Part shown: piece by piece, positions 2,942 through 17,219 of the stretch
Layout: each line of letters starts with the position of its first letter
Position numbering within the stretch: position 1 is the stretch's first letter
From: a bacterium
GTDB taxonomy: Bacteria > SAR324 > NAC60-12
DNA length: 23,701 nucleotides
Assembly (NCBI GenBank): GCA_965233585.1
Contig: CBDDTI010000068.1
Coordinates: 1-23,701, forward strand
Direction of reading: 5' to 3'
Translations under genes and position numbers: made by a program
The notes under the pieces: generated by a model
The model's database searches: none
What the model saw: only the letters and a program-made list of their open reading frames with translations
What the model was told of the DNA's origin: nothing

Positions 2942-3500
2942 ATGGGAAAAAGAAAAAAAAAGTCGTCATTAAAATCTAGGAAAGTGAGCAAAAAAGTAAA
3001 AACCCCTGACAAAATTTTTGTTGTAAAATCATCTCGTCCTCTTAACTTTTTGGACTCGGTTTTGTGTCATTAACCTCAATTAGGCCCGATTATTAGAGCG
3101 AAACCTTTGGCCGTGTCCCAACACCTCGCTTCAGAAGACAGGGCGACGCCCGTGATTCCAGACGTCCCGTACGTTTTCCTCGATTATCATACTATAGCTT
3201 GCGCGCTTCAATGTCTGGCTCAAACTTTGAAAAATATTGAAGTGGCTAGGGAACACGTCAACCACCTTATTCGTATCATTCTCTCTTCCAAGCCGGGACA
3301 ATTTTTCGAGTTGATTGACAAAAGTAGACAAAGATTGGACCGAATTTATCACGAGTTGGACGATACTTTTTATCCGATTTTTTTTTCTTTTAAAAGAGCA
3401 ATTTGATTTGGATCAACTAATTGAAAACGATTCCAACCCGAAATTGATCAAGAGAGGAAAAAAGATCGAGATTTCGCTTATTGGATGGCTGAAGAAGGAA
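2942..3500 (+). pseudogene. Degenerate orphan ORF truncated at the LTR junction
   Basis: ATG 2942 (MGKRKKKSS, NLS-like) is in frame with ORF 3107-3406 across one TAA (3071-3073). A probable poly-T frameshift near 3380 continues the reading to the LTR. Confidence 0.4.
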
Positions 3501-3888
3501 AGGAATGACATAAAACAGCAAGGAATATAGGTGCGAAATGATAACCGTCTCTTCTAAGTCCCTTTTTTGGTGTAACCAAGAACTGTCTCTCTATATTTCA
3601 CATACGTCTTTACTCAGTCAAAGACAAGATTGTAAGTAACTTGAGGTTCAGTGGAATTTGTACAACAGGGCTGCTTTGGCACCTCCGGGTAGTTGCCAGC
3701 ATTCACTATCTAGGTTACATTTTATGGTTTTATATGGTGTGGGCAAAAATGCACATAAGAGTCAGTACTGTGATAAAAGAAAGCAAACCATTGCATGCAG
3801 GTTAGTGAACCCACCCTTTACATGCTACAAAGGGAAAGTCACGTCCTTGCAAACCAGATGAAAGATTATTTAAGTATAAGATTTGACA
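3501..3888 (-). repeat. 3' LTR (outer 16 nt missing)
   Basis: Begins TGTCAAATC on the minus strand at 3888, directly after the PPT. Identity with the 5' LTR stops at 3501; the plus-strand TGTTATATTCCTGCCG present at 16523-16538 is absent. Confidence 0.93.
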
Positions 3889-3900
3889 GTCCCCGTCACC
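3889..3900 (-). promoter_or_regulatory. Polypurine tract (short)
   Basis: Minus-strand GGTGACGGGGAC immediately precedes the TG of the 3' LTR. Confidence 0.6.
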
Positions 3901-4061
3901 GTACTGAATCGTAAATGATTTTTTGCAAATGGAAAACCCCATACCGTGTTTAGTACAGCCATTAATTTGCCAAGAAAGAATAGGTGATCAAATCTACCTT
4001 TCTGAGAGGGTTGCCAAGCCTCCAAGTAATGGGGATACTAAGCATAGTTTCCATTTCATAA

Positions 4062-5925
4062 CTATTCAAACTGCTTTAAGACCGAATTGGGGAAAGGCGC
4101 AGTCGGGTTGCTACTAGACACAGATCCTGCATTTGGTGACATGAGAGGTAAAGAAGGTTCTTCCGGCTTAGCACAACGATAATTCTTCGTGAATTTCCGT
4201 CGAAAGAAGTAAATCATATAGACAAAGGCCCCTAATAGGATCACATAGAGTACAACAGAGAGCATATATCGTTCAACCCTAGAATACGACGCCTTGAGAA
4301 GAACTAACTTTCCGCCGAAACTCCGGTAATGAAAGAGAATTGGTTAACTCTATCCCTTCCAGACCATTTGTCAGATCGACCTCCTTGGCAATTGTCCCAA
4401 GCCACTCCTTGGCCTGGGAAAGCAAAGGTAACCGGATAATTTCATGATACCCTATCATGTCCGGTGCTCGAACAAACAGATATTCGGATGTTGATGCCTT
4501 CGGACACTCTTCAGTCAATTGAAGAAGATGGATTCCTTGTATCGATGTAATGTTCGTCTCCTTCTCACACTCAACGACCAGTTGGGTAGGTTCGGAGGTC
4601 ATGATTCGGTACAAGGAAGTAGAGATCTGAACGGCGTGCGAATGCATCTTTTTAACCCTCACATTACAAGTCCGCTCAATGTTGGAAGCACTTTGCGAAT
4701 ATAAGTTATATAAACAAAGATTCGTCAAATTCTTGGAAAGTAAGTTCATATTCGGACAGTGGTAAACTGCAGAAATCTTTTTGCAGAGTTGGAATTCAGA
4801 CGAAGTCATCTGTTTCCCAACAAGACCGTGAGTATCTAAGGCTAAATACTCAGCGGAACTTTCCACGTCCAGAATCACAGAAGAATTTCCCAAGAAAAAC
4901 GGTGCTGGTACATGTCTATATAGCTTTAAAGTGCTACCTGAGTACAATGGTAAATGCACAACTGCGTATAAATTACCCTCATTGTCACTCAGGGTGGAGA
5001 CCGGAACTTGGAACAAGATACCAGGATCCTCATGGGATGGAAGCAAATTACGTTTTCTAGCATTCGCAGCTAAATGATCGAAAGCCGATATAAGAGACTC
5101 AGGAGAAACGATCAAAGGTGAAAGCCTATTCTCCATGAGACTCATCATCCCTTGCAGAAAATCAGATAGCTCGAATCTGAAAGAATGTAACAATAATTGA
5201 ACCTGATGTTCCAAGCTATCCATCGCCTGTTTCCGAGATAAAGTAACAGATTCTTTAATTTGCAGTTGCCATTCGGAAAACTGATCCTGAATAAACTCAG
5301 TAATATTATGAATTCTGAGATCTTGTTCCTTTAATTGCTCTATAATTAATTTCTGGTTCTCCTCAGTCTGACCAATGTCAGACTTTAATTGTGCCATTTG
5401 AGCGGTGTTAAACATGGAGGTTCCAAAAGAAGCTAATCCCATAAAAGCTGCCGCAATTGCAGTAGCCGATCTGGTACGCCGTTTAAGTCTAAGGTTAGTA
5501 CTATTGGTAGAAGGAATTGCAGTAGGAAGTTGAAGTAAAGAATCCCTAAGCAAGTCTACCTGATCTCTTTGTAACTCCTTGGAGACAAATCCATCCTTTT
5601 GTGCCAATGACAACAACAAATTGATGCGATCCTGGATCCTCGTGATAGCGTACATCTCGTTCTCTTTGAATGGCGATTCGGTGTTGAATTTGTTCGAGAT
5701 TGTATTCCCCACGAGATCCATCAATACCTGAGTAGCCTGTTCGAGTCTTGGCAGAGGGATTGGAACAATGATGTGCCCATAACCACTTTCCCTAGTGGTT
5801 TCTCCGATTGCCAAGAAAAGCATCGTATTGTTGTTGGAGTGTAAATCTTGAGCTCGCCGGCCGCCCAACAATAGCATTGCCAAGAGAACTATCATCGGTA
5901 AATTTGAGAAGGTTTTGTTTTCCAT
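4062..5925 (-). CDS. env: Env, class I fusion protein of baculovirus-F/errantivirus type; 1-nt frameshift (4282-4343) separates the TM anchor
   Basis: Signal peptide MIVLLAMLLLG; furin site RLKRRTR|S; fusion peptide ATAIAAAFMGLASFG; heptad region; PLY..LKLY..P.PF and C-x7-C..C..C pattern. The TM segment MLSVVLYVILLGAFVYMIYFF-RRK is in the adjacent frame (ORF 4062-4265). Confidence 0.85.
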
Positions 5926-6089
5926 TGCTTTTCAGCTTCTCTATATCTTAACCCGGTGGGTGCTCAATGGAAAATAATGAACCCAAGACTTTTTCAACTC
6001 CAAAGAAACCTCGGTTTCTTTTATACCTTTACTTTATATCCTCTCCCCTTCCTGGAAAGAATTTTTCCCTAAGCCAGATTTCCCCCTTT

Positions 6090-6356
6090 TTACACAAACA
6101 CCTCTTGCTCAGTAACTTGTCCACGCAACTTGGTAATAAAGTACAACAACCCAAACAAAGAAAAAATAAGGAAAATCACAACAAAAATTTTCAGTTTTCC
6201 TGATCGTTTATTGCAACGGTTCAAGTTCAACCGAGTTTTGCGCATCACACTCTGCAGAATTGGAGGCCTCATTCTTCCTTCTTCTACAGAGGAGCGCAAA
6301 AAATCCGCGCACAAATTCGAGGGGGGAAGGATCGTCCGCCTTCCTCTTTCTTCCAC
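6090..6356 (-). CDS. Small overlapping ORF with one TM helix (start uncertain)
   Basis: Basic segment followed by LKIFVVIFLIFSLFGLLYFI; sits between the accessory gene and env. Confidence 0.4.
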   Translation of the reverse strand: MEERGRRTILPPSNLCADFLRSSVEEGRMRPPILQSVMRKTRLNLNRCNKRSGKLKIFVVIFLIFSLFGLLYFITKLRGQVTEQEVFV

Positions 6357-8906
6357 AGCGCCAGGTGACGTAAATGAAGCCTAGCAGACTCGCAAATAAA
6401 AGCGAGCCCACACACCACGCGAGCACAATCTTCTTGTGGTCCTCCACGTCGCCTGGTTTTCCCCAGTCCTTTGTTGCGAATCTTGGAACCCTCTCAGGTT
6501 CCGGAAAACTCAATTGATATCCTTCTTGTTGGCTTAAACGATCAAGTGCACTGAACTCCTTTTTCGGCTGTTGGACTTCTTCCTCTTCTTCTCTAAGGAT
6601 CAGTTCTTTTTTCCTCTTAAGAAGTTTCTCCATTTCCTGCTTCTCTTGCCTCACACTATCCATTACCAAGGCTTCTTCACCCGAGGTGAGTAACCTTGGC
6701 TGTTGAGGCTGCATTGGCTGGTTCACATCTTTAAGGAGGAAAACATTTAAGGAAAATTCGAACTCTATACCTTAGCGAAGTTTTTTAGGAACAAAGACTT
6801 CAAACAACAAAATTAATTCTTACCCCCATCAACTTCATTCCAAGATCCATAATTAAAACTTGGTTGGACCGCAGGTACCGGTGGTCGTTGAGTATAATTC
6901 TCAACGAGCTCCGTTGGCACTTGCCCAGTCCGGATCGCATTGGCCAACACCTGGGAAGCAAACTCGCTCTGTTGTTTAAACTTCTCATTGGCGAGTTTCT
7001 CCCGCAGAAGATCCGCCTCCAGGGTGTCCGTCAGGTTCTTATGCTTTTCCGCAGTCTTCTCCTCCGAGTCGTCCTGTTTCTTCTGGATCGCGCGGTCAAT
7101 CTGGGAGGCTGTTATGTAAGCTCCCAAACCCGCAAGACCAGTCCCAGCATACTTCCCTGCCTTTGTCCAGTAAGGATGTCGTTCGGAGAAAGTTCTCATT
7201 GCATCGCCGACCCTATTATGAAGTTTAAAGTCTTCCCTTACCTGAGGCAAGAAAGACCCCCCTTCATTGGTGATTCGCGACGCAGAACGGACATCTCCAA
7301 AGCTGGAATCCAGGGAATCCAAGGAAGAGGTTGACGATGATCTTGACAACGGTCGATCACCAGCCAAATTTCTTCTTTGCTGTGGAACAGGACGCTGCTT
7401 GTAATTGGGGATGAAGTAATTCGGAGGTTCCAATGGTGGCATGGGATGCCATCCCGAACGAGGAGCCGGTACCGGTCGTGGTACAGCTATCGCGCCTCTC
7501 GTAGGAACTCCGGAAGAACCTGGTAAAGATGCCAACGACGAAACCGATGGTGAACGTTGAATGGGGTTAGGAGGTTGGAAGGAGTCTAGCGAGGTGGTCC
7601 TGGCACGAAGATTGGTGAGAGACACTGGTGGAAGATTCGCCGCCTGAGGTCCGGAACCCGAGGTGAAACTGTGGGTCCCCGATGCACTCCCGACCCTAGG
7701 ACGTGTTTGAGTATTCATTCGGCGAATATCTTGAAGACTGAGGGTGTTGAAGACCCCAGGACCGGGCGCACCCGGCCTCGTCTTCGCCGCTCCCATGCCA
7801 GCTCCGACTCCTGTGCCAGCTCCAAGTCGCATCAAAACGTTACGACTCGGAGAAGGTGGTCCTCTCCTCGATCCACCACGTGAACTGCCAGACTTCGAAG
7901 AAGAAGATGAACCTCCCTTCTTCTTAGGTCTCTTCCCCAACTTCCTAAGAGGTGACCGCTTTCTTCTATTCGAGCGTGATGGAGGATCCGAGATGATTAA
8001 GGCCGGTTCATTCCCCGCTGGCGTATACTGCCGCCGGTAGCTCAATAGCTCCCCGAAGCTATTCACCATCTCCCATTGTCCGAAACCGTATCCGGGAGGA
8101 GGATTTTCCCTGGTGAAACAAGGGGTGTACTGCGTCGCCTCACAGTTTCTCTTGTCCTCCTCGGTGATAAATGCGCATGGGTAGGTGGTGAGCAAAGTCC
8201 GACATCTGTCCACAAGCGTTTGCTGTAGCATTGTGGTGACGATGACCTTGCCTATTTGCTCCGGCAACTTCGTATTGTCCAAGGGAATGAACATCATCTC
8301 CATCCGTTGAGACATGATATAGGAGAAGAAATCCTGTAAGTATCCATAGACCAGGGTAGAACGAGTGTAGGGTGCCTTCCGGATTACCAGATCATAGAGA
8401 ACCTGATCTAAATGTACCCCGGCCATCACCGCCCGAACGTTTTCTGGACTGAGAACGTACTCCTTGTTCGCTCTCTTGGATCTCCGAAGGACCTTCTTTT
8501 CCAATTCAAAATCATGTCGCCCATCTAACAATCAAAGTAATTAGAGCCCAGAAAATTTCAGAGAAATAGAAATTTATTTACCTAAAACTTTATTGAGGCC
8601 CAAAGCCTTGTTGTTAGTTCGAGGTGGAACACCTCTAAAATCTCGAAGCATCTTGGAGAAATAATCGAGGACACAATCACTCGGTTTGCGTCCACCTCCA
8701 AGTAGCGGTAGCGGGTAAATCGGTCTTGATGTAGTAGTCGTTGTCTCGAAGCGCGTAGGACGCTTAGGTCTGCACAAGGGAGAAGGTCGAGCACAAACGA
8801 CCCCAGTCCTATTGGAACGTCCCCCTCGCGGAATCAGACGTCTCCTCCACTTCGGTCTTGGCGTTGGAGACGCTTCCTCAGTAGACCTCTTGCGCCTCGC
8901 GTTCAT
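6208..8906 (-). CDS. Spliced accessory membrane protein, exons 8906-8582, 8524-6824, 6728-6208 (848 aa predicted)
   Basis: Two phase-1 GT-AG introns join three ORFs in frame. The product has multibasic RRKRS/RRSKR motifs, a Ser/Pro/Gly-rich middle, a coiled-coil-like part and a C-terminal TM segment IVLAWCVGSLLFASLLGFIYVTW followed by RCGRKRK. Confidence 0.72.
6729..6823 (-). other. 95-nt spliceosomal intron (predicted)
   Basis: GG|GTAAGA...TTTTCCTCCTTAAAG|AT. Its removal restores frame: ...EVDG-D-VNQPMQ. Confidence 0.75.
8525..8581 (-). other. 57-nt spliceosomal intron (predicted)
   Basis: AG|GTAAAT...CTAAT...TTGTTAG|AT. AT-rich; its removal deletes in-frame stops and gives ...NKVL-D-GRHDF. 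Confidence 0.75.
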
Positions 8907-8952
8907 CGGCCCGATTCCTGGTGCAAACTTACTAAGCAGATTCTTCAGAAAG

Positions 8953-9231
8953 TTATTCTGTTTCAGAAGCTGCTCCAGGTGTTCCGGGTCCCGCTGATTG
9001 CTCCGAATCCGATCCCATTGGCGAGGTGAAGTTTTCGTTATTCACGTGGAAGTTGAAGTTAATCGAGCCATGATTGGCCGACGGTCCTTGTGTGTTCCAC
9101 ACGTTCGAATCCGCTGAAGAATCCTGAGCAGTTGACGTCATATGCGCCATCTCTTGGTACCCCGTGTACCCTTCACCGGAAAATCCACCTCCCATGGCGT
9201 CGAACAAGAGCGGTAAAAGGAATCCAGCCAT
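8953..9231 (-). CDS. Small accessory ORF (92 aa from MAGFLLPLLF); possibly the frameshifted N-terminus of the downstream accessory gene
   Basis: Good-context ATG (AGGATGG), hydrophobic N-terminus, Gly/Ser-rich. It overlaps the open frame (from ~9042) that leads into ORF 8574-8906. Confidence 0.45.
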   Translation of the reverse strand: MAGFLLPLLFDAMGGGFSGEGYTGYQEMAHMTSTAQDSSADSNVWNTQGPSANHGSINFNFHVNNENFTSPMGSDSEQSAGPGTPGAASETE

Positions 9232-9561
9232 CCTTAAATTATTCAGTTTTGGTTGTTGTTGAAAACGAAAAGCGAACTTAAGTACCCTTACTGCTGAAGA
9301 GCAACTTTGTAAGTGAATGTCTAAGTGAAAATGAGTGATTTTTATATGAAATTTGTGGTTCCAATTCAGGAACCCCAAGATGAATACTTGGATCTGATTG
9401 GTGGAAAAAGTTTTGGCGCAAAAAATGGACAATATTTACGACGCAATTTGTCTGGCGTATTTGACAATGGGCTGCAATCTATTAGCCAAATGACAGAAAG
9501 TGATTTTGACAGCTTCCGTCTCCGTAATAGATTACAGTCAGGGATTTATTTGAATAACCCA

Positions 9562-12500
9562 CTAATGGGAAGGGGTTTGGTCGAGTTCATTGTCCCTGCA
9601 GGCTTCCAGAGGAAAAATTTCGTGAATACTGCGTTTCAATATTTTCCTGGAATTTTTGGACCTCAAAAGAACCGTTCGAACTTGACCATCTGTCCCCTTA
9701 ATTATTCGAAAAACCCTACCTAATGGCCATTGATATTGTTTCCTATTTTGCTCCTCAATTAACACCAAATCTCCGATCTTCAAGTTTGGATGTTTAGAAA
9801 ACCACCTATGTCTGGCATGAAGTTGGGTTAAATATTGTGATGTCCACAACTTCTTAAATTCTCGAGACAAATCCTGACGTTGCTCCCAACGAAGTCTCAC
9901 TTCCGAGGAGTCATCGCATTCTGTCTCAGAGAAAAAATCCTGCCATAGGCGAATACGTCTTCCAAGACAAAGCATAGAAGGCGTAATCACATCAAATGCT
10001 TCTTCAGATACGGCAAGCAGAGGGCGATCGTTAACTTGCGCCTCCGCATCCTTCATCAGGGTGAGAAAGTCGACGTAGGTCATGACTTCTGACTTATCAA
10101 GTAACTTTCTCATGGGAACCTTGATGAGTTTCACTGCCCTTTCCCAAATGCCGCCTCCGGCCGAATGAAGCTCCGTAGAGTAACTCCACTTAAACTCATA
10201 CTTGTCCGCGGCATCCTTAATGATCTCGTTATTAATGGCGATCGTTTCCTTCAACTCTTTATCGGCCTTTTTGAAGTAAAGGCCATTATCAGAGTATAAA
10301 TGGACTGGCACGCCACGAATCGACATCATGCGTCGCAGAGCAAGCAAAAAGTCTTCAGCCTCATTCGATAGAACGAGTTCCGTATGAACCGCTCTGGTAA
10401 TAAGGCAAGTAAATATGACCATATAGCAAGGATGAGTATTCCTCGCCCTTATAGTCATTTTAACTTGAAACTTTGCCGTGTAATCTACCCCAACTTTAGT
10501 GAAGGGTGGAGAATACTTTAATCTGATAGTAGGGAGAGGAGCCATGATCTGCTGACCTCTCCTCGCATTTGATTTTTGGCATTCTAAACATTTTCTCAAT
10601 ACACTTCTTATTTGAAGCCTACTAGACATAATCCAGTATTGTTGCCGCAAATGGAAGTGTGTCCAATCAACAGGAGAATGTTGATTGTCCAGATGAGTTT
10701 TTAAGATGAGTGATGTAACAAATCCATGACCTTTTGGAAGAATGATTGGAAACCTCTCAAACTCCAAAAGTGGGGCTTCAACTAATCTACCGTGCACTCT
10801 CAACACTCCCCTTTCGTCCAACTGCGGGTTTAATGGCAAAAGTTTGGAGTGTCTTGGGATATCCTGTCCCCGGTTTAGATTTTCTATTTCCTCAGCGAAA
10901 TGAGAAAATTGGGCCTGTTTGATCCAATAAAGTCGTGCACGTTGTTTATGGTGCGAAATTTTATTTGGATCTAGAATAGCTGATTTCTTACTTAGGGCTT
11001 TAATTTTCCAAATATCCACGATTTCCATGATTAACATGGTCTTCCTCAGAAGAAGATCGTGGTCTCCATAATAGTCAGCCATATTGACGACCATCATGTT
11101 TTGTGGATATTCCTCGTAAGTTTTACTTATAGTCAAATGACTATAGACAAATTGCTTCTTTACTTCCTGCAATTTATCTACTTTGGAGAAATCCACTTTG
11201 GGTATTTTCCAATCCTCTCGCGAGAGTCGCAAGAAATTTGGGCCCTGAGTCCACAAAGTTCTTTTCAATGCGCTAGGAGCACATCCACGGCTTGCAATAT
11301 CCGCTGGATTCATTTGCGTGCTCACGTATTGGAAAACATACCCAAACCCTTGAATTTTTTGTACTCGATTAGAAACAAAGGGTAACAAGGAATTTGGCTT
11401 CTTTGTTAGCCACCATAGTGTTGTTTCTGAATCAGAATAACAAAAAATCCGGTTCTTTGGAAAATTGAGTTCTTCCCTAATCATATCAGCTATCTTTGCA
11501 CACAAGAGTGCAGCCACTAATTCTAAGCGAGGCACAGAAATATCTTTTGTGGGATTAATTTTCGACTTTGCAAACAACAATGTAGATTCATAACGATTTT
11601 CCTTATTGTTAAACGTCCGTGCATATGCTGCGACTCCATGGCCCATATTCGCAGAAGCGTCGCCAAAGACATGTAACTCCGTAGAGTCATTGAACTCCAC
11701 ATGTCTAGGAAACGTAACATCTTTCAATTCAGGTAGCATTTCCAACCACCTGTGCCATTCCTGCTGCAAATTTGGGGAAAGTTTACTCTTCCAATTTATT
11801 TTCTCCTCAAAAGTACTCTTCAAGATTTTTCTTGCAAGAAGGATAAAAGGAGAAATAAGTCCCAAAGGGTCAAAAGGTCTCGCAAGCAAACTGGCTACGG
11901 AGGTTTTAGTGTCATCATTATGAATCGCCATACTGCAATAATGTCGAAAAATAAATGTATCCTGTGACGGATCCCATCTAATCCCCAAAGAAGAAGTTTC
12001 TTCGCTTAAAAACAAAGAACTTTCCTCTTTGTCAGTGGTTGTAGGTGCACGAGCCTCCTTAGGAATTCTCTTAAGGAGCTCTGGTGAATTAGTTGCCCAT
12101 TTATGGATTTTAAAATGACCTCTATCTAATAACTTACAAAGTTCTCTATACATGGTAAAGGCTTCTTCTACTGAATCACCCCCGGTGGTGACATCATCTA
12201 CATACGTATCCTTCAGGATGGTATCACACGCCCTTTTTTCAAAGGTCGTGAGGCCTGCCTCTAACAACCGGTCTTTAACAAGTCGTTGCAAGCAAGATAT
12301 GGCTTGAAAGGGTGAATCTGCCGCGCCAAAGATCAATGTTTTAAATTGATAAACTTTGGTAGTGGCCTTGGGATCGTCCGGATCCCTCCACAAGAATCTA
12401 AGATACTGTCGATCTATTGGGTCCACCTCAATTTGTAAAAACATTTTACTTATATCGCCAATAAGAGCAATTCTCCTAGTGCGAAATCTCAATTCAACAG

Positions 12501-13737
12501 CCACAATGGCCTGTTGTAGAGGTGGCCCTGGCAATAGGGAGTCATTCAGCGAAAATCCCGAAGGGGATTTCGCCGACGCATCAAACACGATGCGACATTT
12601 CGTGCTGACGCGTGTAGGATCATAGACAGCCCTATGGGGAAGGAAATATAGATCGGTCCGTCCTAAATTGCCCATTTCCTCGATCGTCTCTGTGGTCACT
12701 TCCTCAATTGTACATTGGTCAATGTAATCATTCATTGCCTTGAGGTAAGCGGCCTTTAAATCTGGATCCTTTTTCAACCTTCTCATGAGACCTTCCAGGC
12801 GGGCCTTCGCCGAGGCAATATTGTTGACCAACTTTGGTTGCTCACTTCGCCATAGAAGTCTCGTGGTGAAACGACCGGAAACTGGGTTGTATCTCAGATT
12901 CTCCGACATGCTTTCGACAGCCATAATCTCATCCACGCTGAGTTTCTCGTCAGTGTGATCTCTGGGGAGTTCTTCAATAGTCCACATCCTCTCGATATTC
13001 TTGTTAAGCTGTTCCACAGTCGTAACAAAAGTATCGATGTCCTCTTGTTGTTCTCGTAGCATCCCACAAGGTACAAGTCCGAATTTCGTCTTGATGATGA
13101 CCAAAGACTCGCCGATCTTCTGGTCAATGCCTTGTACGATTGTCCACATGTCCACGACTCCCAGGAGAATGTCCACATCGCCTCCCTTCCTCGGGATCGA
13201 TTCATTCAATTCAAGGGAATTCAGCTTCTCGCGTAAATTGCCGTCAACATGTATATTTTCATAATTGATGCTCATTATGAAAGGAACTACGAAACAATCA
13301 AAGGAAACAAAACCGAACGATGCCTTTAAATGGCATCTAACCTTCCGCGAATGTTGTACTTTTATACCATGAAGCGTGTTAATGGACAAAGTTACATTTT
13401 TATCAAGAGTTTCATGTCTTACCCCTCTCAAAGCCTTTGCAGTAATGAAAGAAGAAGTAGAACCTGTGTCCAATAGAACCCTTAATCTACCATCCTTGGA
13501 AGCTTGGTTTTGAACCATCAATGTGGGGAGTAATTGTGGTGAATTTAAATTAGGGTGTGGTAATTGAAGTTCTCCTCCCAGAGTTCTGCCTGAAAAATTA
13601 GTGAAATTATTAGAACGATGAAGGTTTGTTAAATCAAAGACTACATTAGCGTTACAAATTTTCACGGTAGGGGATTTCCATTTGTTAGAGGGCCCCCTTA
13701 CGCCCACCGGTAAGTCCGATGGGAGCCCCAAATTTTC
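9562..13737 (-). CDS. pol: Pol: aspartic protease, RT, RNase H, integrase; in frame with gag after a UAG
   Basis: VLLDTGS (PR); YFLPH..V, CRIVFDAS, DISKMFLQI, YVDD (RT); LHVFGDAS, VPRLELVAA, SDS, NPADIASRG (RH); H..C..C, GVDY, SDNG, GGIWER (IN); GDLVLI..WPLGRV C-terminus. No native ATG at the 5' end. Confidence 0.97.
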   Translation of the reverse strand, partial: ENLGLPSDLPVGVRGPSNKWKSPTVKICNANVVFDLTNLHRSNNFTNFSGRTLGGELQLPHPNLNSPQLLPTLMVQNQASKDGRLRVLLDTGSTSSFITAKALRGVRHETLDKNVTLSINTLHGIKVQHSRKVRCHLKASFGFVSFDCFVVPFIMSINYENIHVDGNLREKLNSLELNESIPRKGGDVDILLGVVDMWTIVQGIDQKIGESLVIIKTKFGLVPCGMLREQQEDIDTFVTTVEQLNKNIERMWTIEELPRDHTDEKLSVDEIMAVESMSENLRYNPVSGRFTTRLLWRSEQPKLVNNIASAKARLEGLMRRLKKDPDLKAAYLKAMNDYIDQCTIEEVTTETIEEMGNLGRTDLYFLPHRAVYDPTRVSTKCRIVFDASAKSPSGFSLNDSLLPGPPLQQAIVAVELRFRTRRIALIGDISKMFLQIEVDPIDRQYLRFLWRDPDDPKATTKVYQFKTLIFGAADSPFQAISCLQRLVKDRLLEAGLTTFEKRACDTILKDTYVDDVTTGGDSVEEAFTMYRELCKLLDRGHFKIHKWATNSPELLKRIPKEARAPTTTDKEESSLFLSEETSSLGIRWDPSQDTFIFRHYCSMAIHNDDTKTSVASLLARPFDPLGLISPFILLARKILKSTFEEKINWKSKLSPNLQQEWHRWLEMLPELKDVTFPRHVEFNDSTELHVFGDASANMGHGVAAYARTFNNKENRYESTLLFAKSKINPTKDISVPRLELVAALLCAKIADMIREELNFPKNRIFCYSDSETTLWWLTKKPNSLLPFVSNRVQKIQGFGYVFQYVSTQMNPADIASRGCAPSALKRTLWTQGPNFLRLSREDWKIPKVDFSKVDKLQEVKKQFVYSHLTISKTYEEYPQNMMVVNMADYYGDHDLLLRKTMLIMEIVDIWKIKALSKKSAILDPNKISHHKQRARLYWIKQAQFSHFAEEIENLNRGQDIPRHSKLLPLNPQLDERGVLRVHGRLVEAPLLEFERFPIILPKGHGFVTSLILKTHLDNQHSPVDWTHFHLRQQYWIMSSRLQIRSVLRKCLECQKSNARRGQQIMAPLPTIRLKYSPPFTKVGVDYTAKFQVKMTIRARNTHPCYMVIFTCLITRAVHTELVLSNEAEDFLLALRRMMSIRGVPVHLYSDNGLYFKKADKELKETIAINNEIIKDAADKYEFKWSYSTELHSAGGGIWERAVKLIKVPMRKLLDKSEVMTYVDFLTLMKDAEAQVNDRPLLAVSEEAFDVITPSMLCLGRRIRLWQDFFSETECDDSSEVRLRWEQRQDLSREFKKLWTSQYLTQLHARHRWFSKHPNLKIGDLVLIEEQNRKQYQWPLGRVFRIIKGTDGQVRTVLLRSKNSRKILKRSIHEIFPLEACRDNELDQTPSH

Positions 13738-13740
13738 CTA
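13689..13740 (-). promoter_or_regulatory. Putative stop-codon readthrough signal (UAG + 8-nt spacer + stem/pseudoknot)
   Basis: UAG GAAAAUUU GGGGCUCCCAUCGGACUUACCGGUGGGCGUAAGGGGGCCCU. GGGGCUCCC/GGGGGCCCU, CCCAUCGG/CCGGUGGG and CUUAC/GUAAG can pair. Confidence 0.7.
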
Positions 13741-16020
13741 ACTACTTTGGGGAGGGACTAAATCTTTCGACCGACCATGCAGCGATCGATGATGTCTTCC
13801 GCGACAATTATCTTGATCGCATCCCGGATGGGGACACGACGAAGCCCAATGACCTGCCTTTAAACAATTAAGGCATAGCTGAAATTCTAAAGCCTTTACA
13901 TACATGGTATCAGGTTTCATCTTTTGTGTACAATGATTAGAACTATGTCGCGGACTGTTACAAAAACAACAGGGTATCACTTCCCTTTCTCTATTGTCTT
14001 TATCACTCATCGCTGATTGGTCAGTCTTGGTTGTAGATATCACTGGTGTTGATCCTCTTCCTCTGCCCCTTCCTCTGCCTCCGCCACGACCTCTACCACC
14101 TCGAGTACCGCCTCTTCCTCTACCTGTTCCACGGCCGCCACGTGCTGCACCACCCCCCATGTTATTTGTAGCGGTTGCAGCAACCGTGTCTGTCGCCAAG
14201 ACCGTGGTTACGTCTTCTGGCTCCGACTTCTGTGAATGTTGAGCACCTCCTTTATTTCCCTTGGAATCCTTCTTCTTGCTTTTGTTATCCCCAAATTCCA
14301 TGGCTATACCAGACGGTTGGCCCAATTTGATTTTGGGGTTACTTGGATCGGCATGGTAAAAGGTCCTCGCCATAGAGACCTGCTTCTCCATCCAATCTAA
14401 CATGAAATCCAATTTATTCCTATCACTCATTTTGCCTCTCAAAGTTTCCTCCCTGTCGAGTGCCCACTGATAATCACTGCGCATTCTCTGATTGAATTTA
14501 CAGTGCAACTCGTGACAAATTGCCCTAGCGTTAAAGGTAGCTCCATCCTCGTATTGCAGAAGGCTCATCACGTAGTTGGTGGCAAATCCGAAGAACTGTG
14601 CAAGGTCCTTGTACCTATTCTCAGGGACCATCGGAAATGCAATAAGCCTCTCCCTTAGTTGACTTAGGGAGGCTTCAGTGTCACCGAAAGCTTTCTCCAG
14701 GTTCCTTTTCAATTGATCGTAACTCCCAGGTGAAAAGGTGATCTGGTGAGTGAGGTAATTCGCTGTTCCCTTGAGAGAGCTACTGAGTAAATGAAGTTTC
14801 ATGATTTTAGGAATTTTTGGATTTCTATCTACCAAACAAGTAAACATAGCATAGAACTTGTGGAACTCCAAGGGGTTACCATAAAAGTTTGGTAACTTGA
14901 CATCAGGTAGAGTGTGGTATTGGCCTGAGTAAGGCTGAGGAGCAGAAAAAAGTTCTGCACCAGTTTCCTCAATCTTCAAATGGAAACGTTGGGCCAAAGA
15001 ATCCATGTCATGGGTCATTGCCCCTGCCTGTGACTGCATGCCTGTGCCTTCTTCTTCCGCAAACCCCCTCATTAAGTTATTCATCATGAACTCCTTTTGC
15101 TGGGGAGTCAAGCTTTCGCTTTCCAGTACAAATTTAAGCATTTGCTGCCTCTGCACGTCCTTCCTTTCTTCTGAAGGCGCTCTGCTTCCCCTCCTGGTTG
15201 AGGACAAGCCTGGCACAAAGGCTCCAGCACCTTCATGCTTCTCCTCTTTTGGTTCCTTTCTCTGGCCTGCTTCAGGTTGACCTGATTCTGGAACATTATC
15301 TGCAGAGGAAGCATTAAAAGAAAGGAAAGTCTCCCCCGGTTCAGGAAAGTCTTGAAAAAGCACTGGCACGGAAACACCATCGTCTGAAAATGCAGTGTTC
15401 AGCATTTCTATCACAGGAAGCACACTTTCTCTGACCCAGTTCGTGTGTGCTTGCACAGCATGACCTAGATTCTCCCCTGACAAGAACATTAAGTACGTGA
15501 CAGTATCTAGAAACTCACGAAAAAGGGATAAGGCCATTGCCCTATAAATGTCTAAACCTTTTGTCCATCCCCTTTCTTGAGTAGTCACACCCTCCCTGAA
15601 AGACTGAAGCTTCTCTACGTAACTACAAACTAGAGCTCTTCTTGCCACCATAAACCTTTTCACTTCATCCTCGGCACAATCAGATATTAAGGCTTCTGAT
15701 GTGCCAGGATAAGCCATTCTACCGAGAGATTTATCAAGTTCTCTCAGCAGAAGGGTGACGATGGGTATTTCCCTATTGACTGGTATGTGTAACTCAAAGG
15801 GAAACCCAATTAAAAGTCTGATGAAAAGACGCATCCTATCTAGCTGTTCTTCATCACCTAAGTCTTGACCAGCGAAATAATCCTTTACCTCGCCGGCCCT
15901 GATGGCATTTCTCACGGTTTCGTAGAATGCAAGCCATTCTTGATTTCTTCTTGATCTGGCTTGCTGCTTCAGATCCATCACAGTTGGGTTATCACGTACT
16001 TCTGACCTTGTTCTTACCAT
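13738..16020 (-). CDS. gag: Gag (BEL/Pao type), 760 aa
   Basis: LPDVKLPNFYGNPLEFHKF (DUF1759-like capsid start), an RGG-rich tract, and three C-terminal knuckles: CFCNSPRHSSNHC, CLNCLKAGHWASSC and CDQDNCRGRHHRSLH. Confidence 0.95.
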   Translation of the reverse strand: MVRTRSEVRDNPTVMDLKQQARSRRNQEWLAFYETVRNAIRAGEVKDYFAGQDLGDEEQLDRMRLFIRLLIGFPFELHIPVNREIPIVTLLLRELDKSLGRMAYPGTSEALISDCAEDEVKRFMVARRALVCSYVEKLQSFREGVTTQERGWTKGLDIYRAMALSLFREFLDTVTYLMFLSGENLGHAVQAHTNWVRESVLPVIEMLNTAFSDDGVSVPVLFQDFPEPGETFLSFNASSADNVPESGQPEAGQRKEPKEEKHEGAGAFVPGLSSTRRGSRAPSEERKDVQRQQMLKFVLESESLTPQQKEFMMNNLMRGFAEEEGTGMQSQAGAMTHDMDSLAQRFHLKIEETGAELFSAPQPYSGQYHTLPDVKLPNFYGNPLEFHKFYAMFTCLVDRNPKIPKIMKLHLLSSSLKGTANYLTHQITFSPGSYDQLKRNLEKAFGDTEASLSQLRERLIAFPMVPENRYKDLAQFFGFATNYVMSLLQYEDGATFNARAICHELHCKFNQRMRSDYQWALDREETLRGKMSDRNKLDFMLDWMEKQVSMARTFYHADPSNPKIKLGQPSGIAMEFGDNKSKKKDSKGNKGGAQHSQKSEPEDVTTVLATDTVAATATNNMGGGAARGGRGTGRGRGGTRGGRGRGGGRGRGRGRGSTPVISTTKTDQSAMSDKDNREREVIPCCFCNSPRHSSNHCTQKMKPDTMYVKALEFQLCLNCLKAGHWASSCPHPGCDQDNCRGRHHRSLHGRSKDLVPPQSS

Positions 16021-16156
16021 TTTGTTAAAGCTAATGTATATATATATATATGTAATAAATTAATGTCTTAAAGTTTTTGTCTTTGATTTATCACAACTTA
16101 ATCACTAATTAAATAATAACGATGATGATTGACTTACAATTTCACCTCTGACATAC

Positions 16157-16414
16157 TCAACGTTCTCTACTGGAATTGTGTCTTGAGGGCAAATCTGACC
16201 ATAGATCATCACTCTGACAAAACCCTGGATGTAGATGATTTCTTTCACAGGCTATACACAGAATTCCTCTCTCTAACCTGATCAATCTACAAACTGGGCA
16301 GTCAAAATATCTGATACGCCGCGTCATGATATCGTAAAATCTGTCCCCACACGTAACACACGTAGCGTATCTGATCCATCTTCTTATTGGTCGATTTTGT
16401 TGTTGCTCGCTCAT
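16157..16414 (-). CDS. Upstream accessory ORF, putative zinc-binding protein (85 aa)
   Basis: ATG-initiated intact ORF between the PBS and gag. Motif CxxC-x16-CxxC-x10-CxxC-x3-H-x-H-x3-C; Arg-rich. Confidence 0.7.
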   Translation of the reverse strand: MSEQQQNRPIRRWIRYATCVTCGDRFYDIMTRRIRYFDCPVCRLIRLERGILCIACERNHLHPGFCQSDDLWSDLPSRHNSSRER

Positions 16415-16442
16415 ATTATAATTCCAGTATTAATAGAAGTAC

Positions 16443-16521
16443 AGTACCTTGGTTCAATTGGTATGATGTTTTCGCCTGCCTTCGGCCCTTAGAGGTTTGA
16501 TTTCCCGGTTAGCATGCACCA
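16443..16521 (-). promoter_or_regulatory. Primer-binding site, extended complement of tRNA-Gly(GCC)
   Basis: The plus strand reads GGTTCAATTGGTA...TCGCCTGCC...GGTTTGATTTCCCGG...ATGCACCA. These blocks are collinear with the D-arm, anticodon arm, T-arm and acceptor+CCA of eukaryotic tRNA-Gly(GCC). The CCA is 1 nt from the LTR end. Confidence 0.8.
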
Positions 16522-16522
16522 A

Positions 16523-16922
16523 TGTTATATTCCTGCCGAGGAATGACATAAAAACAGCAAGGAATATAGGTGCGAAATGATAACCGTCTCTTCTAAGTCC
16601 CTTTTTTGGTGTAACCAAGAACTGTCTCTCTATATTTCACAAACGTCTTTACTCATCAAAGACAAGATTGTAAGTAACTTGAGGTTCAGTGGAATTTGTA
16701 CAACAGGGCTGCTTTGGCACCTCCGGGTAGTTGCCAGCATTCACATCTAGGTTACATTTTATGGTTTTATATGGTGTGGGCAAAAATACACATAAGAGTC
16801 AGTACTGTGATAAAAGAAAGCAAACCATTGCATGCAGGTTAGTGAACCCACCCTTTACATGCTACAAAGGGAAAGCCACGTCCTTGCAAACCAGATGAAA
16901 GATTATTTAAGTATAAGATTTG
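16523..16922 (-). repeat. 5' LTR (outer 3 nt missing)
   Basis: Inner end reads ...GGAATATAACA on the minus strand and is followed by T-TGG (PBS). It matches the 3' LTR with 3 substitutions and 3 one-base indels. The terminal TGT seen in the other copy is absent. Confidence 0.93.
16765..16771 (-). promoter_or_regulatory. Candidate LTR TATA box
   Basis: TATAAAA on the minus strand in mid-LTR (also at 3728-3734). A variant poly(A) signal AGTAAA lies downstream at 16648-16653. Confidence 0.4.
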
Positions 16923-17219
16923 TTTTGTGTTGGCAGCATGTATATTGATGAAACGCCTGTTGATGAATGACTTTTGATCATTGAATTTTGGGTAAAAATA
17001 TCTGTAAATAGTTTGAAGAGTGTAATTATTAGATCCTTTTCATGTAGTTTATCAATTTTTATAATTTCCCTTGAATTTTTCTCAATACACGGAGGAAATT
17101 TCATTGCCATTTTTGTCGTGTAAGTGTTTGCTCAAAATTTGGTCCTCAAAATTCATTCCTTTAAGGACACCTTCCCAAAAAAAAGCATTACAGATTAGAA
17201 ATGCATGTACTTGGACCAT

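Follow-up and report, generated by a model that had tools for sequence, protein, structure and literature searches.

The stretch of DNA analysed here (the window) is contig C68, 23,701 nucleotides (nt) long, of a 12-Mb, 747-contig assembly filed as prokaryotic. Positions 3501-16922 of its minus strand are occupied by a retroelement of 13,422 bp (13.4 kb), in which a long terminal repeat (LTR) is followed by a small Cys-rich open reading frame (ORF), gag, pol, a further gene that we call the extra gene, a putative F-type env and a second LTR. The extra gene (9231-6208) is the main subject of this work. We consider it very likely that this gene is genuine, that it has three exons and that the two short segments between them are spliceosomal introns; this confidence covers the gene model and the reality of the introns, and we are less sure of the promoter step and of the role of the protein.

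Exon-intron model of the extra gene

The segments of the gene are given below, with a slash marking each splice site. Homologues are database proteins, and the ratio of nonsynonymous to synonymous substitution (dN/dS) refers to a second full-length copy of the element on contig C640 (the sister copy).

8582-9231, minus strand: exon 1, a single ORF in C640 from MAGFLLP... to the donor; 28 homologues
8525-8581, minus strand: predicted intron 1, 57 nt, phase 1, G/GTAAATAAA ... CTAAT ... TTAG/AT, with three in-frame stops
6824-8524, minus strand: exon 2, dN/dS 0.09 and no indels against the sister copy, modelled with AlphaFold2; 18 homologues
6729-6823, minus strand: predicted intron 2, phase 1, 95 nt here and 92 nt in the sister copy, G/GTAAG ... 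pyrimidine tract ... AAAG/AT
6208-6728, minus strand: exon 3, acidic helical stretch, transmembrane anchor and basic Cys-containing tail, dN/dS 0.15; 21 homologues

An earlier note on this DNA had described three minus-strand ORFs (8574-8906, 110 amino acids (aa) and opening with ATG; 6813-8531, 572 aa; 6208-6726, 172 aa) separated by AT-rich gaps of 57 and 95 nt with GT-AG borders, a CTAAT motif in the first gap and a pyrimidine tract in the second, and all of this is found as described. Exon 1 ends at 8582; in intron 1 the GT lies at 8581-8580, CTAAT at 8544-8540 and the AG at 8526-8525, and in intron 2 the GT at 6823-6822 is followed by the pyrimidine tract and by the AG at 6730-6729. The GC content of the gaps is 0.26 and 0.30, as against 0.48-0.52 in the exons. 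Joining the ORFs by script confirmed that both joins are in phase 1, that each rebuilds an Asp codon and that an 848-aa frame results (2547 nt, no internal stop). The statement that the two downstream ORFs have no ATG at their 5′ ends stands apart from one detail, namely that exon 3 has an ATG five codons in.

Two other parts of the note call for revision. It had taken the 848-aa frame for the full product and had predicted a 110-aa Arg-rich isoform upon retention of intron 1, and both would start from an internal Met. Exon 1 of this copy is split by a frameshift near 8995, and ATG 8906 lies inside exon 1; it is most likely an internal Met because the exon 1 frame of C640 runs upstream to the ATG equivalent to 9231. 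Upstream of 8906, the substitutions relative to the sister copy are mostly at third positions (dN/dS 0.04). The extra gene thus probably starts at ATG 9231 and not at 8906. Intact exon 1 has about 216 codons, and the intact gene model of C640 (649 + 1701 + 521 nt, with introns of 57 and 92 nt) encodes 956 aa with no stops. The window copy must itself be regarded as dead or decayed, because both exon 1 and env carry frameshifts. Annotation based on ORFs splits the extra gene into three unrelated-looking ORFs.

Comparison with the sister copy

C640 is 97.5% identical to the window element over 13,437 aligned columns. The earlier note had named conservation of the splice dinucleotides in sister copies as the test of its claim; all four are kept in C640, so that the claim survives. 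No indel separates the exon parts of the two copies, and of their 185 substitutions 136 fall at third codon positions, with dN/dS values of 0.04 for the upstream part of exon 1, 0.12 for the rest of exon 1, 0.09 for exon 2 and 0.15 for exon 3. These are the marks of purifying selection on all three exons. Intron 2 shows 3 gap columns and 13 mismatches at 92 aligned positions. Intron 1 differs at only 2 of its 57 positions, which is below the synonymous rate of its neighbours (P 0.0004-0.002); it is therefore unusually conserved between these two close copies.

Synonymous divergence between C68 and C640 amounts to 0.19-0.62 in the extra gene (window 9330-6210) and to 0.037 in gag, pol and env. 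Given this 5-15-fold excess over the remaining genes, the cassette with the extra gene has been exchanged by recombination between sublineages, which makes the element a mosaic. Over 6124-9301 the DNA runs reach about half the depth seen in the flanks, and one contig assembled from these runs joins 5944 to 9828 with 26 unrelated letters between (the shorter side is 20 letters long; the 26-mer does not occur in the assembly). The half depth and this joint together are a hint that there may be relatives with a different cassette or none. Neither of the spliced joints that the earlier note had given, 8582^8524 and 6824^6728, was present in the DNA contigs of four runs from one study over 3400-17000, in which rare variants are dropped and intron-less copies could be missed.

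The extra gene in diverged families and in databases

All homologues of the extra gene in the 12-Mb assembly lie at the same place inside related elements, and no free-standing host copy was seen there. Two diverged families, on contigs C231 and C212, bear on the suggestion of the earlier note that GT/AG conservation be followed across copies. C231 is 82% identical to the window element in Env, 41% in exon 2 and 51% in exon 3. Its exon 1 ends in ...GAA G/GTAAATAAA, and the 60-nt segment that follows ends in ...TTTTAG/AT and rebuilds the Asp, so that the site, the phase and the donor sequence of intron 1 are the same as in the window. Exons 2 and 3 of C231 form one continuous ORF, and intron 2 is absent. 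C212 is more remote, with an Env 51% identical and an extra gene that can barely be aligned. Here, a GT-AG segment of 55 nt, in phase 1, links an upstream ORF beginning MLGHVLPMVMG... to one of 1061 aa with a transmembrane anchor at its end, again without intron 2. Intron 1 is thus found at the same site and in the same phase in both families, and because C231 and C212 keep intron 1 and have no intron 2, intron 1 is the old one and intron 2 is specific to one lineage.

Two polyadenylation-type motifs were noted in passing. At the donor of intron 1, G/GTAAATAAA, the 5′ splice site overlaps both with an AATAAA signal and with an in-frame TAA (8573-8582), and C231 has the same nine letters. Another AATAAA, at 6212-6207, overlaps the stop codon of the extra gene and is likewise present in C231.

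Outside the assembly, relatives of the extra gene are few. The exon 2 ORF has 18 relatives in 5.8 billion clusters; except for the window's own they all come from ENA metagenome assemblies, and not one has a Pfam domain. When 1.84 billion representative proteins were searched with a profile, only 32 matched, all fragments or members of the extra-protein family. A search for related DNA in genome and metagenome contigs yielded no confirmed relative. The database proteins nevertheless allow the splice sites to be followed, since an unspliced ORF reads through the donor. Of the 28 exon 1 homologues, which go down to 40% identity, 23 end with 'GK' or 'GKIH' and a stop, in line with the donor proposed in the earlier note, and the other 5 stop earlier; 'GK' is therefore present in 23 of the 23 that reach the end of the exon. 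Similarly, all 12 exon 2 ORFs of the intron-bearing type run into 'GK' (a read-through of G/GTAAG or G/GTAAA), followed by 1-35 unrelated residues. At the acceptor side, the exon 3 ORFs that read upstream show [K/E/I]-D in 4 of 4 cases, which is compatible with AG/AT. No form without intron 1 was seen: the start of exon 2 is covered by 12 library proteins, which reach at most 26 residues further upstream. When exon 1, exon 2 and exon 3 proteins are grouped by the equal contig sizes in the homologue tables, the grouping suggests that at least six other contigs (sizes 10091, 10422, 7808, 10814, 12351 and 28068) carry the same three separate ORFs.

A database ORF of another kind is P0094 (277 aa), which opens with pol-like sequence and closes like the extra protein (...EPLELEPLK); here a deletion in a C231-type element has brought pol into fusion with the last part of the extra gene.

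Relatives lacking intron 2

The intron 2 site is read through in P0012, P0013 (nearly the C231 protein), P0015, P0017, P0036 and P0095. Among C231, C212, P0012, P0013, P0036 and P0085, which have no intron 2, all that can be aligned across the site are collinear with the predicted spliced product. For example, 38 residues separate the position equivalent to a conserved W from EK[LM]L in C231/P0013, P0012, P0036 and P0085, exactly as in the spliced product. The gaps of the window therefore look as spliceosomal GT-AG introns would: their removal restores one conserved frame, and their signals are kept among diverged copies while the interior varies in sequence and length.

The earlier note had also proposed a search for intron-less copies, and P0085 (295 aa) is such a copy with respect to intron 2. 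It matches the end of exon 2 and exon 3 at 70% identity each and passes through the junction as ...SR-D-VN... without a gap, so that intron 2 is missing exactly. The tree of the exon 3 region separates a clade of contiguous forms from a clade of 16 exon-3-only ORFs (support 99/97). P0085 falls inside the exon-3-only, intron-bearing clade (branch support 86/88), and excluding it from the 16 ORFs costs 9.0 log-likelihood units (approximately unbiased (AU) test, p-AU 0.030). Because P0085 is nested in the intron-bearing clade and has no gap at the junction, the simplest reading is that it arose by precise secondary loss of intron 2, as a processed copy that would be the footprint of a reverse-transcribed spliced RNA. 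P0056, an exon 1 homologue on a contig of the same size as that of P0085, still ends in 'GK', and the P0085/P0056 element thus seems to keep intron 1. No look-alike of either intron was found elsewhere in the assembly, and nothing therefore points to an introner-like mobile origin.

Features of the extra protein

The predicted extra protein is an orphan that belongs to no known family and ends in a C-terminal membrane anchor. Exon 2 encodes a helical Cys-containing domain, a long disordered stretch rich in Ser, Pro and Gly, a Gly-rich hydrophobic segment and a coiled coil. In AlphaFold2 models, residues ~30-170 of exon 2 form the helical domain (predicted local distance difference test (pLDDT) ~90 in the model of the whole exon and 83 when modelled alone), after which come about 250 disordered residues and a 65-residue helix. 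The sole strong hydrophobic window of the 956-aa model lies at residues 884-906 and is followed by the basic Cys-containing tail. Other features of the model are four sites of the RxKR type, several of which are conserved, five N-x-S/T sequons and, within the helical domain, four conserved Cys.

Searches with the protein gave nothing in Pfam at E <= 1, no match among PDB sequences, no usable match in the ESM Atlas and nothing in BFVD at E <= 0.001. A fold search with the whole exon 2 model returned only generic long helices (Z <= 6.6), which we discarded, and with the model of the N-terminal domain (pLDDT 83) the best Z was 4.5 over 51 residues and the best Foldseek E 0.94. Our best guess is that the extra protein is a type I membrane glycoprotein that undergoes furin-like processing and works together with the putative F-type Env when particles are enveloped or enter a cell. 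The positive-inside rule applied to the anchor, the RxKR sites, the sequons and the Cys residues are what suggests this; we put it forward tentatively, as a proposal that falls a little short of an even chance.

Other genes of the element and the origin of the contigs

The remaining features of the element are as follows.

16539-16922, minus strand: 5′ LTR, a direct repeat with 3501-3885, 98.4% identical over 386 aligned columns
16160-16414, minus strand: leader ORF, 85 aa, Cys-rich with three CxxC pairs, between the 5′ LTR and gag
16132-16137, minus strand: GTAAGT, a candidate leader splice donor, put forward from a reading of the letters only
13738-16020, minus strand: gag, Pfam DUF1759 (E 1.6e-11)
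9562-13731, minus strand: pol of BEL/Pao type, assigned by Pfam
9340-9346, minus strand: TATAAAA box, a candidate internal promoter, 109-115 nt upstream of ATG 9231
4062-5925, minus strand: env-like gene, split by a frameshift near 4290 into ORFs 5925-4279 (548 aa) and 4343-4062; an intact 620-aa ORF in C640
3501-3885, minus strand: 3′ LTR, about 385 nt, direct repeat partner of 16539-16922

The pol Pfam matches above their cut-offs are, in order, Peptidase_A17 (2e-39), Integrase_H2C2 (5.8e-6) and DUF5641 (6.8e-22), and RVT_1 is found below its cut-off (E 2.9e-4). Because gag matches DUF1759 and pol matches Peptidase_A17, Integrase_H2C2 and DUF5641, we assign the element to the BEL/Pao LTR retrotransposons; the flanking LTRs that such elements have are present, and pol and the LTRs agree with the definition of the Belpaoviridae. 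Gag has a dN/dS of 0.04 against the sister copy. The 85-aa leader ORF is identical in C640 and 55-61% identical in C231, where it occurs in two places; it matches the Pfam Double zinc ribbon weakly and below the cut-off (E 0.016), and it may be a further accessory gene. The leader GTAAGT (16137-16132) and a TTAG just before the gag ATG could also bound a leader intron of about 100 nt.

With regard to the env-like gene, one base at 4290, near the frameshift, is lacking in most contigs of the DNA runs. As read from its sequence, the protein has a signal-like N-terminus, an RLKRRTR motif followed by a hydrophobic stretch and, in C640, a C-terminal transmembrane segment. Its nearest Atlas clusters are Baculo_F and paramyxovirus Fusion_gly (0.96-0.97). 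We treat the F-type assignment as a lead only, because sequence searches found no Baculo_F or Fusion_gly match in Pfam at E <= 1 and, with a profile of three sequences, no match in the PDB.

Contigs such as C68 are clearly eukaryotic despite the prokaryotic filing, and much of the assembly bin is eukaryotic host DNA; host contigs have, in other words, been binned into a 'prokaryotic' assembly. The assembly (G000) has 12.0 Mb in 747 contigs, three of them of 0.6-1.1 Mb and the rest mostly below 60 kb, with GC of 0.35-0.45. LTR retrotransposons occur on contigs C68, C640, C231, C212, C408 and C47. Pieces of an actin-family gene lie on C64 and C577, split by kb-sized gaps, and the spacing of the matches on C577 (1.6-1.9 kb) suggests a host that has long introns too. 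The immediate flanks of the element (16923-17000 and 3402-3457) recur on contigs C11, C593 and C435 at 91-97% identity, which places the element within another repeat. Further direct repeats, not part of the element, are found at 20904-20964/23626-23686, 21520-21615/22891-22986 and 20074-20161/20412-20499. One of the pairs holds a GGTTCGA.TCC motif resembling a tRNA 3′ end and may be a repeat like a short interspersed nuclear element. ARAGORN found no tRNA genes in the window.

Expression of the extra gene and alternative explanations

How might an LTR element express such a gene and keep its introns? We propose that the extra gene would be expressed from a transcript of its own, probably via the conserved TATA box that precedes its ATG by about 110 nt; a splice from the leader to an acceptor would be an alternative route. 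The host spliceosome would remove both introns from the extra-gene mRNA, and new copies would descend from full-length genomic RNA from which the introns had not been removed. The introns would persist because the copies descend from this unspliced RNA, and packaging of unspliced genomic RNA is what retroviruses ordinarily do. Occasionally an RNA spliced in part would be copied, giving a lineage such as P0085 that is exactly without intron 2. A TATAAA is present at the aligned position in all four elements (C68, C640, C231 and C212), 109-135 nt upstream of the ATG in a spacer that has otherwise diverged. The CAG acceptor at 9296-9294 is kept in three of the four, and C212 has CAT. We infer that an internal promoter is to be favoured over a leader splice because the TATA box is kept in 4/4 and the acceptor in only three, and it would be a simpler route than the regulated alternative splicing that the earlier note had deduced from the retention of the introns.

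The leader splice is the alternative that we take most seriously, as a possibility on the unlikely side. As in retroviruses, LTR-driven RNA would be spliced from the leader GTAAGT (16137-16132) to the CAG at 9296-9294, both short introns would be removed too, and the balance of unspliced, singly spliced and multiply spliced RNA would be regulated, in keeping with the earlier note. The consensus donor in the leader and pyrimidine-rich CAG acceptors upstream of both the extra gene and env are what such a scheme needs, and C68, C640 and C231 all keep the acceptor that precedes env. There is also a precedent in CERV of the retrotransposon Cer1, which, in the part of the report drawn on here, has a spliced five-exon mRNA whose conventional host splice signals are kept in the genomic RNA (PMC10309623). 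The acceptor of the extra gene, however, is the one that has CAT for CAG in C212, where the TATA box is kept as in the other elements.

Two more alternatives call the introns themselves, or their link to the element, into question. If the gaps were not introns, the ORFs could be three separate cistrons, remnants of a decayed gene or parts of one product joined by translational recoding. Chance readily produces in-frame GT-AG pairs, and the window copy has decayed elsewhere, in exon 1 and env, as this explanation would have it. Yet at least six other lineages have exons 2 and 3 in a single uninterrupted ORF that is collinear with the spliced product; the exons are under purifying selection and free of indels, whereas intron 2 takes indels; and the 'GK' read-through of the donor with its stop is kept across dozens of diverged ORFs. 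Recoding in particular cannot bridge the gaps, because intron 1 has three in-frame stops and intron 2 shifts the frame and varies in length between copies (95 and 92 nt). We regard this explanation as highly improbable. Alternatively, the cassette might be a captured host gene that brought along its promoter and introns, either as DNA or through recombination, and now travels as a passive passenger. The build of the gene is in keeping with this, with a TATA box, introns and an AATAAA at the stop, as are its GC content (0.48-0.52, against 0.42-0.46 in gag, pol and env) and the 5-15-fold excess of synonymous divergence, which shows that the cassette has moved by recombination. A host origin is harder to reconcile with the position of every homologue of the assembly at the same place in a related element and with the lack of a free-standing host copy there. 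Moreover, three element families with Env identities of only 51-82% have retained the gene, and its dN/dS values are 0.04-0.15, which argues for selection through the element's own replication. A passive passenger is thus improbable, although the gene may have been captured in the distant past.

Several considerations nevertheless weigh against our three-exon model and what we build upon it. Chance alone often yields in-frame GT-AG pairs; in the roughly 90 nt around each gap, 16 alternative pairs for the first gap and 36 for the second would also keep the frame open, and the case for introns therefore rests on comparison. The 90-odd database proteins are evidence at the protein level only, so that their splice-site codons have to be deduced from residues, and splicing, transcript starts and isoforms alike are predictions from sequence. 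In the history of intron 2, the nesting of P0085 depends on a moderately supported branch, the group for the AU test was named after the tree had been seen, and 'exon-3-only ORF' is a proxy for the presence of the intron. The tree of the exon 2 end, rooted on C212, has a very long outgroup branch and open basal forks and is compatible with either gain or loss of intron 2 at the base of the family. As for the protein, the N-terminal hydrophobic stretch is weak (Kyte-Doolittle 1.22) and contains an Asp, and a signal peptide and type I topology are therefore uncertain; the RxKR sites could instead be basic clusters of the nuclear-localisation type; and no fold or family match from the Pfam, PDB, Atlas or fold searches supports any function.

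One could envision a bolder scenario, which we offer as speculation and consider quite unlikely as a whole. The element would be a complex belpaovirus with two envelope-type genes, a mucin-like, furin-processed anchor protein and an F-type fusion protein, in a pairing of attachment and fusion like that of paramyxoviruses, and the extra gene would be an autonomous nested unit driven by its TATA box. Intron 2 would be a de novo gain, lost by retro-processing in P0085. Intron 1 would be kept for a reason in cis, as a U1 small nuclear ribonucleoprotein (snRNP) switch between splicing, with the full-length anchored protein as its outcome, and premature stop or polyadenylation, with an N-terminal product of ~218 aa; the switch would also shield genomic RNA from internal cleavage. 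The idea of the switch comes from the AAUAAA that overlaps the 5′ splice site of intron 1 (G/GUAAAUAAA, conserved in C68, C640 and C231), together with the conservation of intron 1, which is far higher than that of neighbouring synonymous sites.

Comparison with known systems

Reverse transcription of spliced RNA erases introns, and introns that survive in a retroelement gene across diverged families therefore mark RNA that escaped splicing before it was copied. Spliceosomal introns kept through retrotransposition are known from Penelope-like and Ogre elements. The former, however, are not LTR elements, and the intron of Ogre lies in the gag-pol region of a plant element, unlike those of the extra gene. 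In the family described here, lineages with both introns, with only intron 1 and one apparent processed derivative occur side by side, a natural series for how an LTR element keeps, gains and loses introns.

Complex retroviruses offer functional parallels. The lentivirus genes tat and rev and the foamy virus genes tas and bet are extra genes downstream of pol that are expressed from spliced RNAs, in foamy viruses with an internal promoter, and it is the unspliced RNA that is packaged. The internal promoter of foamy viruses is in this sense analogous to the TATA box proposed here. These accessory genes differ from the extra gene in that they encode small regulators, their introns contain env or other coding sequence, and their carriers are Retroviridae of vertebrate hosts.

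The closest known case is CERV of Cer1, a Ty3/gypsy LTR retrotransposon of C. elegans with a spliced multi-exon (five-exon) mRNA (PMC10309623), which we compare by description, as given in the part of that report drawn on here, and not by sequence. In both elements an LTR retrotransposon encodes an orphan accessory protein, partly where env would lie, and the extra gene as modelled shares with CERV a multi-exon mRNA whose host splice signals stay in the genomic RNA. The differences are considerable. The element described here is of BEL/Pao and not of Ty3/gypsy type. In cerv, exons 1-3 overlap with gag and the long introns contain coding sequence, whereas the introns here are 55-95 nt long and non-coding. 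CERV is a nuclear RNA-export factor without a membrane anchor, whereas the extra gene is self-contained, encodes a predicted transmembrane anchor and lies beside a separate env-like gene. Extra ORFs of unclear function have been described in LTR retrotransposons of bdelloid rotifers (PMC5408684); the ORF3s are presented there without introns (the word 'intron' occurs 0 times in the main text), unlike the extra gene with its two.

Among BEL/Pao elements, capture of an env is documented for Roo (F-like), a nematode element (phlebovirus-like, Atlas virus) and mosquito elements (chuvirus-like gB) in the sections of the reports consulted (PMC13524379, PMC9094657), and they combine a gag-pol backbone with a viral-type fusion glycoprotein downstream of pol, as the element described here would with its putative F-type env. 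BEL/Pao elements are usually 4.2-10 kb long according to the passage of the survey consulted (PMC3118150), as compared with 13.4 kb here. In the open-access literature on BEL/Pao searched, we found no report of a second large gene between pol and env or of short non-coding introns inside an accessory or env gene. The window element and its relatives thus add an orphan, strongly conserved gene for a predicted membrane protein to a BEL/Pao backbone already equipped with a putative fusion gene of viral type, and thereby a retrovirus-like 'complex' layout to a superfamily usually described as gag-pol with an occasional env.

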